Positions 20,213 through 24,851 of a stretch of DNA of 64,000 nucleotides are shown here, one piece after another. Origin of the DNA: Escherichia coli (lineage in GTDB: Bacteria > Pseudomonadota > Gammaproteobacteria > Enterobacterales > Enterobacteriaceae); assembly GCF_003790525.1 (NCBI RefSeq), contig NZ_CP033635.1. One strand, given 5' to 3'. The position numbers were made by a program, and so were the translations under genes. A model generated the notes under the pieces. The model saw nothing but the letters and a program-made list of their open reading frames with translations, was not told where the DNA came from and ran no database searches. Every line of letters starts with the position of its first letter. The stretch's first letter is position 1.

Positions 20213-20722
20213 ATGGCGACGCTGACAGAAGATGATGTGCTTGAGCAACTGGATGCACAGGACAATTTATTTTCATTTATGAAAACTGCGCATTCTATTT
20301 TGCTCCAGGGGATACGCCAGTTTCTGCCGTCGCTGTTTGTCGATAACGATGAAGAGATCGTCGAATATGCAGTGAAGCCGTTACTCGCCCAAAGCGGCCC
20401 GCTTGACGATATTGATGTTGCGCTGCGTTTGATTTATGCGCTGGGGAAAATGGATAAATGGCTGTACGCCGATATCACGCATTTTTCCCAGTTCTGGCAT
20501 TACCTGAACGAACAGGATGAAATGCCCGGATTTGCCGATGACATGACCTGGGATTTTATCAGCAACGTCAATAGTATAACCCGCAATGCGACGCTCTATG
20601 ACGCATTGAAAGCGATGAAGTTCGCCGATTTCGCCGTCTGGTCAGAGGCGCGTTTTAGCGGGATGGTCAAAACGGCGCTGACGCTGGCAGTAACGACCAC
20701 CTTAAAGGAATTAACGCCGTGA
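20213..20722 (+). CDS. yggD: MtlR-like regulator/fumarase E family protein
   Basis: 169-aa ORF MATLTEDDVLEQLDAQDNLFSFMKTAHSILLQG... matches YggD. Confidence 0.8.
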   Translation: MATLTEDDVLEQLDAQDNLFSFMKTAHSILLQGIRQFLPSLFVDNDEEIVEYAVKPLLAQSGPLDDIDVALRLIYALGKMDKWLYADITHFSQFWHYLNEQDEMPGFADDMTWDFISNVNSITRNATLYDALKAMKFADFAVWSEARFSGMVKTALTLAVTTTLKELTP

Positions 20723-21432
20723 AAATTGAATTAACGGTGAATGGGCTGAAGATACAGGCACAGTACCAGAACGAAGAGATTGAAAATGTACATAAACCGT
20801 TGCTGCACATGTTGGCGGCCTTACAGACGGTAAATCCGCAGCGGCGTACGGTGGTTTTTCTTTGCGCTCCGCCGGGGACGGGTAAATCTACCCTAACCAC
20901 CTTCTGGGAATATATCGCGCAACAAGACCCGGAACTGCCCGCTATTCAGACGCTACCGATGGATGGTTTTCATCATTACAATAGCTGGCTGGATGCGCAT
21001 CAATTGCGCCCCTTCAAAGGCGCACCAGAGACATTTGACGTTGCGAAACTGGCGGAAAATCTGCGCCAGGTCGTGGAAGGGGATTGTACGTGGCCGCAGT
21101 ACGATCGACAAAAGCATGATCCTGTTGAAGATGCGTTGCACGTTACCGCACCACTCGTCATCGTCGAAGGAAACTGGTTGTTGCTGGACGACGAGAAGTG
21201 GCGCCAGCTTGCGCAATTTTGTGATTTCTCGATCTTTATCAAAGCTCCCGCATCTGCGTTGCGGGAGCGTCTGGTGGGGCGCAAGCTGGCGGGAGGGTTA
21301 TCGCTGGCAGACGCAGAAGCCTTTTATGACCGTACCGACGGGCCGAATGTTCGCCGGGTGCTGGAAGAGAGTCTGCCTGCAAATTTGACCTTAATGATGA
21401 CCGCTACGGGTGAATATCGTCTGATGGATTAA
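20719..21432 (+). CDS. yggC: P-loop kinase (uridine kinase/PRK-like)
   Basis: 237-aa ORF, GTG start overlapping yggD stop; Walker A APPGTGKST. Confidence 0.8.
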   Translation: MKIELTVNGLKIQAQYQNEEIENVHKPLLHMLAALQTVNPQRRTVVFLCAPPGTGKSTLTTFWEYIAQQDPELPAIQTLPMDGFHHYNSWLDAHQLRPFKGAPETFDVAKLAENLRQVVEGDCTWPQYDRQKHDPVEDALHVTAPLVIVEGNWLLLDDEKWRQLAQFCDFSIFIKAPASALRERLVGRKLAGGLSLADAEAFYDRTDGPNVRRVLEESLPANLTLMMTATGEYRLMD

Positions 21433-22081
21433 CGTTCCTGATTACACCATCTTCCAGTCGCACCACACGAGAGAAATGACGCCGGGTAAATGCGGCGTCA
21501 TGACTGATTGCTACGACGCTCGTGCCTCGCTGGCGGCACTTTTCCAGCCAACTTTCAAACACGCTCATCCAATTTTCGTCAAAATCCCGACTCGGCTCGT
21601 CCAGCAGCAATAGCGGCGGAGAGAGTGCTTCCAGGCAGGCGACGGCGACCATCCGTCGCTGCGCACTATGCAGATCCAGCGGATGCGCGCTGGCAGTGTC
21701 TGCTAACTGACAGCATTGCAGGGCAGCATTGGTACGTTGAGTGATTTCATCCGCCGGGCATTTTTGCAGTTTCAAACCAAATGCGATCTCGTCAGCGACG
21801 GTGCTGTGAAAAAGCTGGTTTTCCGCTTCCTGAAACAGTACGCCAATCTTTGCCGCGCGCTGGCGGTTTTTCAGGTTTTTCATCGCCTGTTGTTGCAGCA
21901 TAACCGTACCGGCTGTGGGCGTAAGAAGACCTGCCATTACTCGTAACAGCGTCGATTTTCCCGCGCCATTGTCGCCGGTCAGCGCCAACCATTCACCTTG
22001 TTTGAGTTGCAGAGAAATGTCGCAAAGACAATCCGTTGCCGCGTCAGGCCAGCGATAAGTTATCTGATTTAACGTTAACAT
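21404..22081 (-). CDS. ABC-type ATPase, ECF-transporter energizing subunit with degenerate signature motif (EcfA'-like)
   Basis: Walker A GDNGAGKST, Walker B LLLLDEPSRDFD, H-loop ISHD, but signature region reads LHSAQRR instead of LSGGQ; ATG 22081 overlaps upstream ATPase stop (ATGTTAA). Confidence 0.75.
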   Translation of the reverse strand: MLTLNQITYRWPDAATDCLCDISLQLKQGEWLALTGDNGAGKSTLLRVMAGLLTPTAGTVMLQQQAMKNLKNRQRAAKIGVLFQEAENQLFHSTVADEIAFGLKLQKCPADEITQRTNAALQCCQLADTASAHPLDLHSAQRRMVAVACLEALSPPLLLLDEPSRDFDENWMSVFESWLEKCRQRGTSVVAISHDAAFTRRHFSRVVRLEDGVIRNVNPSDDIHP

Positions 22082-22752
22082 AGTGGCTGGAGCGCTCCGT
22101 TTTGCAATTGCCACGCTTGCTGGCAGTAGTTCAGGAAAGGTGTACGATGACGTTCAAAAAGAATAATCAGCGAACCACGTTCAAGCGCCCAGTGTTGTAA
22201 GCGCTGCAACAGCATTTCGCAGGCCTGCGGCGTCAGGCGGCTAAAGGCTTCATCAAGAATTAAGAGCTTTGGCTGCATCGCGATGGCGCAGGCGATGACC
22301 ACACGCTGTGTCTCTCCACCGGAGAGTGTTGCCGGGTGACGATGGCGCAACGGCTGGCACTCGGTCAGAGTCAGGGCGGCATCAATCCGCGCCATAATCT
22401 CCTCTTCAGCAAGACACAGATTTTCTGGCCCAAAGGCAACTTTTTCTTCCACGCTAAAGGTACAGCCGGAGAGCTGCAAATAGGGCGATTGCTGAACGAG
22501 CTGGATGGTGGCGGATTGTTCATTAAGCGGGATATGCCCAATGGGCGTACCGAGAAGCGTCCCCGTGCCGGTTATCTCTCCTGGCAGAAAGTCCGGATAC
22601 CAGCCCGCCATCAGCTGTGCCAGCGTACTTTTGCCACTGCCGTTGTCACCAAAGATGGCGACCATCCCCGGTTTGACATAGTGAAAGTCATAACAGAACG
22701 GAGGATGCGTTGAGTGTGTCGGGCAATAGCGAAACTGTTCTAACGTAACCAT
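22075..22752 (-). CDS. ABC-type ATPase, ECF-transporter energizing subunit (EcfA-like)
   Basis: Walker A GDNGSGKST, canonical signature LSGGETQR, Walker B LLILDEA; start could be 22758 or 22752. Confidence 0.75.
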   Translation of the reverse strand: MVTLEQFRYCPTHSTHPPFCYDFHYVKPGMVAIFGDNGSGKSTLAQLMAGWYPDFLPGEITGTGTLLGTPIGHIPLNEQSATIQLVQQSPYLQLSGCTFSVEEKVAFGPENLCLAEEEIMARIDAALTLTECQPLRHRHPATLSGGETQRVVIACAIAMQPKLLILDEAFSRLTPQACEMLLQRLQHWALERGSLIILFERHRTPFLNYCQQAWQLQNGALQPLC

Positions 22753-23447
22753 ATCCACGCTCCGAATTCAGCCAGCATTAGCAAGATCATGGCGTAACGT
22801 GCTACGCGTTGTAGGGTGCTATCGGCTGGTGCCCATAACGTAGTGCGCCTATTGTTGATTCGAAATGCCCGCATATCCAGCGCCGCACCACGGACAGCCA
22901 GATCGTTAAGCGCATTGTGTGTTAGCGGAATAATTAGCGCGGGCATCGCGCGTAAACGCTGATACCAGCCTTCATCAAGCGGCACGCCGCGGGCGCGCTG
23001 CGCTTCATGAATAATCGCTAATTGCCGTTTTAACTGCTCAACGACCAACAACGGCCCGGCGAACAGATAAGCGACGCCCGGCGGCAGGCGAGAAGCAAAC
23101 AAAGCGCGGATAAAACGTTGCACTGGGACGTACTGCATCCACAACTGCGAGGTTGAAACAATCGCCAGAATCCGCAACCAGAGCGTAATAGCATGCGTCC
23201 ACCGTTCTGGCGAGCGTGGCGTGCCGCTTAGCCATTCTATCAGCCAGCCACCGTGTACCAGCCACAGTCCAGCCCCCAGCGAGAACATCAGCCAGACGAC
23301 ATATTTTGCCCGCCGCCGCGTGGCCTTTAGCGCAATAAGGCAGAAAAAGGTCGCCGCGCTATAGACTGGCAATATTGTCTGTGTGGGCAGGATAAGCGTG
23401 GTGTAGGCCGCCAGCGCCCACAGCGTTAATGAGGTAAACGGATGCAT
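22740..23447 (-). CDS. ECF transporter transmembrane T component (CbiQ/EcfT-like)
   Basis: Polytopic 235-aa protein with Ala-Arg-Gly-type coupling motifs (EAQRARGV; LAVRGAALD); ATG directly follows stop of upstream gene. Confidence 0.65.
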   Translation of the reverse strand: MHPFTSLTLWALAAYTTLILPTQTILPVYSAATFFCLIALKATRRRAKYVVWLMFSLGAGLWLVHGGWLIEWLSGTPRSPERWTHAITLWLRILAIVSTSQLWMQYVPVQRFIRALFASRLPPGVAYLFAGPLLVVEQLKRQLAIIHEAQRARGVPLDEGWYQRLRAMPALIIPLTHNALNDLAVRGAALDMRAFRINNRRTTLWAPADSTLQRVARYAMILLMLAEFGAWIWLR

Positions 23448-24026
23448 TTAGCGCACGGCTGCCATTGCCGGAAAATGGCGCGTGGTGCGAATCGGCAGCT
23501 GACGCAGTAAAAGCCAGACAATCACCGCTGTAAGAATTTTATCGACCAGGTTTGCGCCTATCACCGTAATCGCCACCGACTCCACCAGGTTTTGCCCCAT
23601 AGAGTGCATCCAGGCAACGAACAAATCGGCTCCGCTACCGGTGACACCGCCGAACAGCGCAGTACGCAGCGGTACAGCGACGACCGTTACCGCAAGCGTA
23701 ATAATCACGCCGCTGACAACGACTTTTGGCAGGGTGCGGAACCAACCCGCTCGCGCCAGCCAACCGGCGACCAGGCCGATGACCATCGCCACGGGCGCAA
23801 ATGCGGCGGCGATCGGGTCGGTCAGCAATCCCCAGAGTAAATTGGTCAGTAAGCCGGTCAGCATCCCGATCACCGGACCAAGCAGTACCGCGCTAATAAG
23901 TGTGCCGACGGAGTCGAGAAATATAGGTAATTTGACCATGCTGGCCAGTTGCCCGCCGATCATATTGATGGCGATAGATATAACGATCAACACCAGCGCC
24001 TGACTGGAAAAGTGGCGACGCGCCAT
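23448..24026 (-). CDS. small integral membrane protein, putative ECF substrate-capture S component
   Basis: About 190 aa, 5-6 predicted TM helices, sits first in transporter gene order; start chosen at MARRHFSSQ (ORF extends to 24125). Confidence 0.55.
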   Translation of the reverse strand: MARRHFSSQALVLIVISIAINMIGGQLASMVKLPIFLDSVGTLISAVLLGPVIGMLTGLLTNLLWGLLTDPIAAAFAPVAMVIGLVAGWLARAGWFRTLPKVVVSGVIITLAVTVVAVPLRTALFGGVTGSGADLFVAWMHSMGQNLVESVAITVIGANLVDKILTAVIVWLLLRQLPIRTTRHFPAMAAVR

Positions 24027-24048
24027 AAGAAAACCTCTCTGAAAATAG

Positions 24049-24480
24049 TTAGTTAACGGGGGAAATATGCAACTCGTCGTAACCAGAAAGCGCGCAAGGC
24101 TGGCGGCTAAACGCCAGTTCCTCAAGGCAGCCGATCACCAGTTCAAGCGTGGTCCGCACGGTACAGCCGGGCATCATATGACCGCCAAGCATCGTGCCGT
24201 GTGGATCGGAAACGCAGAGATGAAGATGTTCACCACTCTGTTCCAGCGTGCCGTTCAATGCGATGACTTCGAACTTACCGCTTAGTAGGGCAGTGTTTTC
24301 TTGCCCGGCATAGCGTAAGGCGACGTCAGTCAGACTGCCGGTACAACCTGCAATCCACGCGGCGTGAAGTTGTTGTTGCTGCGCGAAGGCGCGTAATTGG
24401 GAGAGAACTTCCTGCCCGGGGAGCAGGCGCAGCGCGTAAAAACGTGCGGAGGAAGAATATGGGTAGGGCAATGTCATCAT
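24049..24480 (-). CDS. DUF296/PPC-domain-like protein (143 aa) of unknown function, first gene of the cluster
   Basis: 143-aa ORF; family assignment from recollection of PPC-domain proteins, not verified. Confidence 0.5.
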   Translation of the reverse strand: MMTLPYPYSSSARFYALRLLPGQEVLSQLRAFAQQQQLHAAWIAGCTGSLTDVALRYAGQENTALLSGKFEVIALNGTLEQSGEHLHLCVSDPHGTMLGGHMMPGCTVRTTLELVIGCLEELAFSRQPCALSGYDELHISPVN

Positions 24481-24608
24481 TGGAGTACTCCGAAACTCGG
24501 ACGTATTGCGGATAATATCGACGCTGCATCAGTCATATTCTGATATAAGTCAGGGTTTGTGACGGCACAACGAAAAGATTTTGCTACGCTTATTCGTGAT
24601 TCTGCAAA

Positions 24609-24624
24609 GTGGAATAAATTCCAC
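24609..24624. promoter_or_regulatory. inverted repeat GTGGAA-N4-TTCCAC in divergent intergenic region, with a further copy of the motif at 24690..24699
   Basis: gtggaataaattccac at 24609..24624; ttttattccac at 24689..24699 is the same motif inverted; lies between the DUF296/ECF cluster and epd. Confidence 0.3.
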
Positions 24625-24851
24625 AGGGGCGGGGCTGAAAACGTGACGTAAGTCAGATAATTGTCTTCTTTGACTGGACAATCATTCCTTTTATTCCACG
24701 TTTCGCTTATCCTAGCTGAAGCGTTTCAGTCGATTAAATGTTCGACAATTAACCAATCAGTCGCAGTTTGCGACAGGTAAGGTTTCCCCGGACGATTTGC
24801 TGGATTACTCTGTCTGGCAAATTTGCTCAGGGAAAACCTTGCAGGAGATCT

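Follow-up and report, generated by a model that had tools for sequence, protein, structure and literature searches.

LmiA of Escherichia coli O-island 119 as a probable cytoplasmic partner of a dedicated ECF-type importer encoded beside epd

The DNA considered here, hereafter ‘the window’, is a stretch of 64,000 nucleotides (nt) from Escherichia coli (contig NZ_CP033635.1), within which five co-directional, minus-strand open reading frames (ORFs) lie between yggC (20719-21432, plus strand) and epd. These five, lmiA-ecfS-ecfT-ecfA1-ecfA2, are predicted to specify a dedicated energy-coupling factor (ECF) importer, i.e., a type of ATP-binding cassette (ABC) transporter, along with a small cytoplasmic protein of the PPC (DUF296) family, LmiA. 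The reading favoured here, to which a probability of roughly 0.7 may be attached, is that this lmiA-ecf operon is ancestral, that it has been lost from K-12-like strains, and that LmiA serves as a partner of the transporter.

The locus itself is not new, being annotated in RefSeq and published as OI-119/LmiA. That is, the cluster is the already described O-island 119 (OI-119; z4267-z4271) of enterohaemorrhagic E. coli (EHEC), an identity which follows from the same five-gene layout, the same His85/87/101 numbering, an exact match to the PhoP footprint, the same promoter and transcription start site (TSS), and 93-98% protein identity to O157:H7 (LmiA 93.0%, the other four 96-98%). In that comparison LmiA shows the lowest conservation among the five (24049-24480 versus L089 3250-3681), with 10 substitutions of which none falls at an invariant position. 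Liu et al. (mBio 2020; PMC7667037) described OI-119 of EHEC O157:H7 as a 3.12-kb, five-gene block (3.12-3.27 kb across PMC7667037 and PMC8565820) in which z4267 (lmiA) encodes a DUF296 protein whose His85, His87 and His101 are predicted to ligate Zn, while z4268 and z4269 were called hypothetical and z4270 and z4271 were described as ABC ATPases. LmiA in that work binds the LEE1 promoter of the enterocyte effacement locus (LEE) and activates ler, with lmiA in turn being PhoP activated, and a 2024 follow-up has LmiA activating gadA and gadBC as well (PMC11657066). A first-pass annotation of this DNA stated no assigned role to be known for the DUF296 partner, but the gene had already been published as one that PhoP activates and whose product regulates ler and gadA/gadBC (PMC7667037, PMC11657066). 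The other four genes are annotated in RefSeq as ECF S, T and ATPase components.

Gene calls were checked against the RefSeq annotation (Prokaryotic Genome Annotation Pipeline, PGAP) of the 100%-identical strain CM2, in which the same five genes are called and to whose locus coordinates 17999 is added to obtain window coordinates. The first gene, lmiA, is separated from that of the S component by a spacer of 22 nt that contains a GAGAGG ribosome site; S and T genes abut as TAA-ATG; the ecfT and A1 ORFs overlap by 13 nt; and the two ATPase genes have ATGTTAA in common. The mechanical ORFs of S, A1 and A2 open upstream of the real starts, with the corrected starts being those of Table 1. At the other end of the cluster, the convergent 3' ends of yggC and ecfA2 overlap by 29 nt (21404-21432), which leaves no space for an intervening terminator. 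The first-pass annotation had described this arrangement accurately, i.e., five minus-strand genes that are read in one direction and whose junctions abut or overlap, and its assignment of an ECF-type importer with a DUF296/PPC gene is likewise borne out by the Pfam and NCBIfam matches, the coupling motifs, and the lack of a binding-protein gene within the cluster, all as follows.

As judged from sequence, the cluster is a putative dedicated (‘group I’-style) ECF-type ABC importer. Hidden Markov model searches of the five proteins match LmiA to PF03479 (E = 2.7e-27), S to PF12822 (E = 2.3e-8, with the S-component fold), and EcfT to CbiQ (PF02361, E = 1.5e-4), with S-fused relatives of EcfT reaching CbiQ E values as low as 8e-24. 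The two ATPases are nearest to ECF ATPase models, A1 to TIGR04520 ECF_ATPase_1 (E = 1.7e-34; 119.5 bits versus a cut-off of 315) and A2 to TIGR04521 ECF_ATPase_2 (E = 8e-44; 149.8 bits versus a cut-off of 330). For S, the best NCBIfam model is NF045596, that of the CD3073-family S component, at 134.9 bits versus a cut-off of 180. Scores against that same model run from 101 to 152 bits over the PPC-linked S clade and a nucleoside hydrolase-linked one (below), and this S family is related to the CD3073 family rather than being a member of it. EcfT carries its x-Arg-Gly coupling motifs, A152-R153-G154 and V185-R186-G187, in columns that are conserved among 73 orthologues. No ORF for an extracytoplasmic binding protein is found within the cluster, which instead has two ATPases, as is expected of an ECF importer.

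Those two ATPases are degenerate in complementary ways over about 70 orthologues, with A2 displaying LH(S/T/A)(A/G)Q instead of LSGGQ while keeping SHD, and with A1 retaining LSGG(E/Q) but lacking the H-loop histidine. One consensus and one degenerate ATP site are therefore predicted. That these parts work together is borne out by S-T fusions and by a T-A-A' triple fusion in Synergistaceae. In the latter, Synergistaceae-type variant, one 690-amino-acid protein consists of EcfT (SRG/ARS motifs) plus both ATPases (L066 8568-10640; also L062, L068 and L004), with three S paralogues present in L004. S-like membrane domains also are seen fused to PAS/HisKA/HATPase histidine-kinase modules (P0220, 935 amino acids; P0243, 569 amino acids), which suggests that the S fold is used as a ligand sensor as well.

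LmiA possesses the PPC/DUF296 domain and fold, and is 79% identical to a Salmonella orthologue for which crystal structures are available (2HX0, 2NMU). Among 74 orthologues there are 20 invariant residues: R18, P21, G48, S49, R56, A58, E71, L75, H85, H87, D92, G95, G99, H101, T110, T111, E113, R126, E136 and L137. An HxH...GGH motif is common to all prokaryotic DUF296 structures, and the LmiA fold appears acetolactate-decarboxylase-like, with an invariant His-x-His...His site. The protein is acidic (pI 5.6) and has no AT-hook, i.e., neither an RGRP nor a GRP motif, such as would characterize an AHL-type protein.

The association of PPC gene with transporter extends well beyond E. coli. A genome scan using a four-sequence alignment of S components, broader S alignments being too diverse, yielded 80 loci, and in 73 of the approximately 78 that are assessable a PPC gene is found directly upstream of S. 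These loci range over Enterobacteriaceae, Morganellaceae, Budviciaceae, Aeromonas, Wohlfahrtiimonas, beta-proteobacteria, Rhizobiales, Paracoccus, Desulfobulbaceae, Synergistaceae and Chloroflexi, with the order PPC-S-T-A-A' kept from Proteobacteria through to Synergistaceae and Chloroflexi, and with PPC and S bit scores co-varying (Spearman 0.95). Outside of this five-gene core, neighbours are not conserved between clades, except for a YedF-C/DsrE-like gene and, among relatives, a nucleoside hydrolase. No PPC-S fusion proteins occur among the fused relatives, these being S-T or histidine-kinase fusions. Most of the organisms possessing the PPC-S pair lack LEE as well as gad targets, and the role for which the PPC protein is conserved should therefore concern the transporter. 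We infer that this role is that of the transporter's cytoplasmic partner, which is not to say that the published DNA binding by LmiA is disproved.

What might be imported is suggested especially by relatives that lack the PPC gene. In eight independent such relatives (S 40-49% identical) an IU-type nucleoside hydrolase is encoded directly upstream of S (Table 1), and companions at the hydrolase-linked loci include a uridine phosphorylase, a 5'-nucleotidase, a LacI-ribokinase-type regulator, and up to three hydrolase copies. A neighbour-joining tree places the hydrolase-linked S clade as sister to the PPC-linked one, with two crossovers, and in one locus (L086) the order is PPC-hydrolase-S-T-A-A'. 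No His, Cys or Met is conserved in the S component itself, where the polar residues that are invariant are Asn, Gln, Asp, Ser, Thr, Arg and Lys; this weakens the idea of a Co or Ni cargo. In addition, genes that are upregulated in an lmiA deletion mutant are enriched in nucleotide metabolism. Based on these considerations, together with a likeness to queK-qrtT (below), a nucleoside or nucleoside-like micronutrient is ranked first as cargo, at a little under even odds. Something else altogether has a substantial but minority chance, and a transition metal such as Co2+ is unlikely.

It is possible as well, though doubtful, that prokaryotic PPC/DUF296 proteins are, more generally, the metal-dependent cytoplasmic partner of a widespread ECF importer of nucleoside-like (possibly thio- or seleno-modified) compounds, standing in what is, in the sister clade, the hydrolase slot. 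As a separate observation, a metagenome contig (L005 3633-4196) encodes, directly after S-T-A-A', a weak match to a putative 2-thiouracil desulfurase (PF27735). An Rfam riboswitch search returned nothing in the window region or in eleven hydrolase-linked loci, and its sole result across nine PPC-linked loci was a tRNA.

Upstream of lmiA, the published PhoP footprint, promoter P1 and TSS are all found (Table 1). A phylogenetic footprint over 16 enterobacterial sequences reveals in addition a palindrome and a TATTAT hexamer. The palindrome, as a cTGAT-N4-ATCAg box, keeps in most genera a constant distance to the ATG (-76 to -78), and the hexamer begins 29.5 nt from the palindrome's centre, an arrangement with class II FNR promoter geometry. 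The two together are a candidate class II FNR-type promoter, one that fits with anaerobic activation of the Salmonella operon as reported in PMC11481890. The window contains no copy of the LmiA-binding motif as published, and autoregulation via that motif therefore is unsupported. A scan for consensus promoters and terminators gave no signal above chance. Further upstream, a near-perfect palindrome, CTGAAACGCTTCAG (24716-24729), is invariant in the same 16 sequences; it belongs to the epd promoter rather than to the cluster and resembles a Cra (FruR) operator.

A number of points weigh against the favoured reading. The CbiQ match of EcfT is weak, and S and both ATPases fall under NCBIfam equivalog cut-offs, with the ATPases being diverged and short (225 amino acids). 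The FNR-like box agrees with just 7-8 of 10 consensus positions. The hydrolase-linked clade, at just 40-49% identity in S, may differ in specificity. In nine loci (Chloroflexi plus one beta-proteobacterium) a protein of about 115 amino acids, containing CxxC and DsrE/YedF-C-like, is attached to the operon. This protein matches TIGR03527, ‘selenium metabolism protein YedF’, over the C-terminal and DsrE-like half of that model (E from 1e-29 to 1e-31), and as a partner it points to sulfur, selenium or metal handling, in a role that the favoured reading leaves unexplained. The literature found, moreover, holds no measurement of transport, of substrate, or of contact between LmiA and transporter. 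Lastly, specific DNA binding by LmiA has been reported in two papers from one laboratory, and deletions of z4268-z4271 were without change in adherence (PMC7667037, PMC11657066).

The DNA binding and the unchanged adherence are the basis of the strongest of the alternatives, which sees in LmiA a stand-alone transcription factor that belongs to an EHEC island and was acquired horizontally, with the four transporter genes as functionally unrelated passengers. The binding data are direct, i.e., electrophoretic mobility shift assay, DNase footprint, and chromatin immunoprecipitation with quantitative PCR at the LEE1 and gadA/gadBC promoters, along with complementation. This alternative is improbable nonetheless, since the locus is syntenic across Enterobacteriaceae, with the K-12 state being the derived one, and since the order PPC-S-T-A-A' is kept in phyla without LEE. 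LmiA, furthermore, is an acidic protein without AT-hook, with an enzyme-like fold and an invariant His triad, and PF03479 is not the DNA-binding element even of plant AHL proteins.

An importer of cobalt or of another transition metal, with LmiA as metal-sensing regulator or metallochaperone, is somewhat less credible still. In its favour are the suggestion of Co2+ import made in a thesis on Salmonella STM3071, as that thesis is cited in PMC11481890, plus the His3 site of LmiA, operon induction by PhoP/low Mg2+, the CxxC DsrE-like partner just noted, and a heavy-metal P-type ATPase that adjoins one locus. In addition to being without conserved His, Cys and Met, however, the S component lacks the N-terminal metal-binding motif of CbiM/NikM, and there is no CbiN gene, that is, the features of CbiMNQO/NikMNQO systems are not found. 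The word ‘cobalt’ in older annotations derives from the CbiQ/CbiO family names, and the sister clade is linked to nucleoside hydrolases.

With regard to ancestry, megablast recovers the whole block from 3318 of 5426 complete E. coli genomes (61%), with the remainder having a K-12-type empty site; in K-12 MG1655, as the first-pass annotation had stated, epd directly adjoins yggC. Upon alignment of full and empty haplotypes, divergence begins inside yggC, where identity drops from 100% to about 60-75% near nt 460 of 714, and stops about 220 nt upstream of epd. The cluster adjoins epd-pgk also in Escherichia albertii, Citrobacter, Salmonella, Klebsiella, Kluyvera, Atlantibacter, Superficieibacter, Phytobacter, Pseudescherichia and Enterobacter, often with yggC-fumE on its other side. 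The C-terminal third of YggC as encoded by the window allele is 95% identical to that of E. albertii and 72-78% to those of Citrobacter/Salmonella, which is like the rest of YggC, versus just 67% and 59-65%, respectively, for the K-12-type allele. As the cluster-linked yggC allele is thus the vertically inherited one, and the K-12-type 3' end the foreign-looking one, the empty haplotype is the derived one, with K-12 having lost the cluster. The operon is ancestral to Enterobacteriaceae at the epd locus, and K-12-like E. coli lost it via a replacement that also exchanged the 3' end of yggC.

That the cluster instead was inserted recently between yggC and epd by horizontal transfer, as absence from K-12 and the name ‘O island’ in the EHEC literature (PMC8565820) might imply, is highly improbable given its same position in many genera, its presence in 61% of E. 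coli genomes, a linked yggC allele that tracks the species tree where the empty-site allele does not, and borders at which no integrase, tRNA, repeat or mobility gene was found and no marked GC shift (0.55-0.57 versus 0.50-0.55) is seen. The usual marks of a genomic island, i.e., mobility genes, tRNA or repeat borders, deviant composition and patchy position between genera, hence are missing. Neighbourhood comparison and K-12 alignment in this way leave standing the first-pass description of a transporter cluster with a DUF296 gene that is missing in K-12, but neither its ‘insertion’ nor its supposition that ECF-type transporters are rare in E. coli.

Local losses and decay were seen as well. 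One E. coli genome (NZ_CP180597.1) has a larger deletion, with epd beside cmtA and with yggC, fumE, glpX/yggF and yggP seemingly missing. In the type strain of E. albertii, A1 is broken up into two ORFs (L008 9269-9952), S is split in Salmonella diarizonae (L019 148-726), and no separate PPC ORF is present in Citrobacter sp. R56 (L078 7428-8579).

Table 1. Features of the lmiA-ecf locus in window coordinates, with the related loci that carry a hydrolase or CxxC gene
Feature	Position or loci	Strand	Basis or remarks
lmiA, PPC/DUF296 protein, 143 amino acids, operon gene 1	24049-24480	-	PF03479; RefSeq ‘PPC domain-containing DNA-binding protein’
ECF S component (substrate-binding membrane subunit), 192 amino acids	23448-24026	-	PF12822; RefSeq ECF S component
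EcfT (T component), a scaffold that has two coupling helices, 235 amino acids	22740-23447	-	CbiQ PF02361; RefSeq ECF T
ABC ATPase 1 (A1), canonical LSGG signature, H-loop His not conserved	22075-22752	-	nearest TIGR04520
ABC ATPase 2 (A2), signature degenerate (LHSAQ), Walker A/B and SHD H-loop canonical	21404-22081	-	nearest TIGR04521
Polymorphic present/absent block (O-island 119 plus diverged 3' third of yggC)	21178-24631		full versus empty haplotype alignment
PhoP footprint/PhoP box of lmiA promoter, GACTTACGTCACGTTTTCAGC	24634-24654	-	exact match; footprint published in PMC7667037
lmiA promoter P1 -35, TTGCAG	24602-24607	-	matches PMC7667037
lmiA promoter P1 -10, TAGCAAAAT	24578-24586	-	matches PMC7667037
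lmiA TSS, T, 90 nt upstream of ATG	24570	-	matches PMC7667037
Conserved palindrome CTGACTTATATCAG, candidate FNR-type box	24540-24553	-	phylogenetic footprint, 16 enterobacterial sequences
Conserved TATTAT hexamer	24512-24517	-	phylogenetic footprint, 16 enterobacterial sequences
Hydrolase-S loci	L067, L082, L083, L085, L087, L091/92, L093, L096/97		
CxxC/DsrE-like gene upstream of PPC	L054, L058, L073, L074, L075, L081		
CxxC/DsrE-like gene downstream of A2	L055, L071, L084		

Under the favoured reading, i.e., that of an ancestral importer with LmiA as partner, the six-helix S component would bind a low-abundance substrate outside of the cell and would then topple against the EcfT scaffold with its two conserved x-Arg-Gly coupling helices, the cycle being driven by a heterodimeric ATPase with a consensus ATP site and a degenerate one. 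Transcription would be from the published PhoP-activated promoter under low Mg2+, with the conserved FNR-like class II promoter probably adding to this. LmiA, as a putative His3-metal protein, may receive, convert or sense the compound that is imported, and the published control of ler and gad by LmiA in EHEC would in that case represent a lineage-specific addition.

On the broader and more doubtful reading of prokaryotic PPC/DUF296 proteins given above, the ‘virulence regulator’ phenotypes of EHEC would be metabolic consequences or moonlighting, and the prokaryotic PPC domain would gain its first biochemical role. The transporter is found in the majority of E. coli as well as in Salmonella and many other enteric bacteria, and is reported to be induced by low Mg2+ and anaerobiosis, with K-12 providing a natural null background in which to seek its substrate. 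Given the difference between an acquired virulence regulator, as found in the literature, and an ancestral operon with a cross-phylum PPC-ECF partnership, as shown by the comparisons made here, the biochemistry of LmiA deserves re-examination.

Among known systems, the nearest is O-island 119 of EHEC O157:H7 itself, which shares locus, gene order, promoter, PhoP box and TSS. The present copy differs in coming from a chicken isolate, strain CM2, and in its LmiA substitutions, while the O-island 119 literature differs from the present account in calling the locus a horizontally acquired island and in giving z4268-z4271 no function. Group I ECF importers (BioMNY, CbiMNQO, QrtTUVW) similarly encode S, T and two ATPases in one operon and share the S fold and the T coupling motifs; different here are the fifth, soluble PPC gene, the short, 225-amino-acid ATPases with one degenerate site, and the CD3073-like S. 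The queK-qrtT-queL queuosine salvage operon of C. difficile (PMC11477304) is like the sister clade in that an IU-type hydrolase is encoded directly upstream of a PF12822 S component. In the clade to which the E. coli operon belongs, by contrast, PPC occupies the hydrolase slot, and no preQ1 riboswitch was found at any examined locus.

Considering LmiA alone, its fold appears akin to that of alpha-acetolactate decarboxylase and PTD012, proteins in which Zn is held by three His, though sequence-level membership in the decarboxylase family is not apparent and LmiA consists of one domain of 143 amino acids. Plant AHL proteins share with LmiA the PF03479 domain, yet LmiA is acidic and without AT-hook, and it is by the AT-hook, not the PPC domain, that DNA is contacted in those plant proteins. 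Also comparable in organization is ykoFEDC of Bacillus subtilis. The soluble YkoF protein of that operon binds hydroxymethylpyrimidine (HMP)/thiamine and has a fold unrelated to that of LmiA, but ykoFEDC, too, is an ECF operon which encodes a soluble, cytoplasmic, ligand-binding protein.

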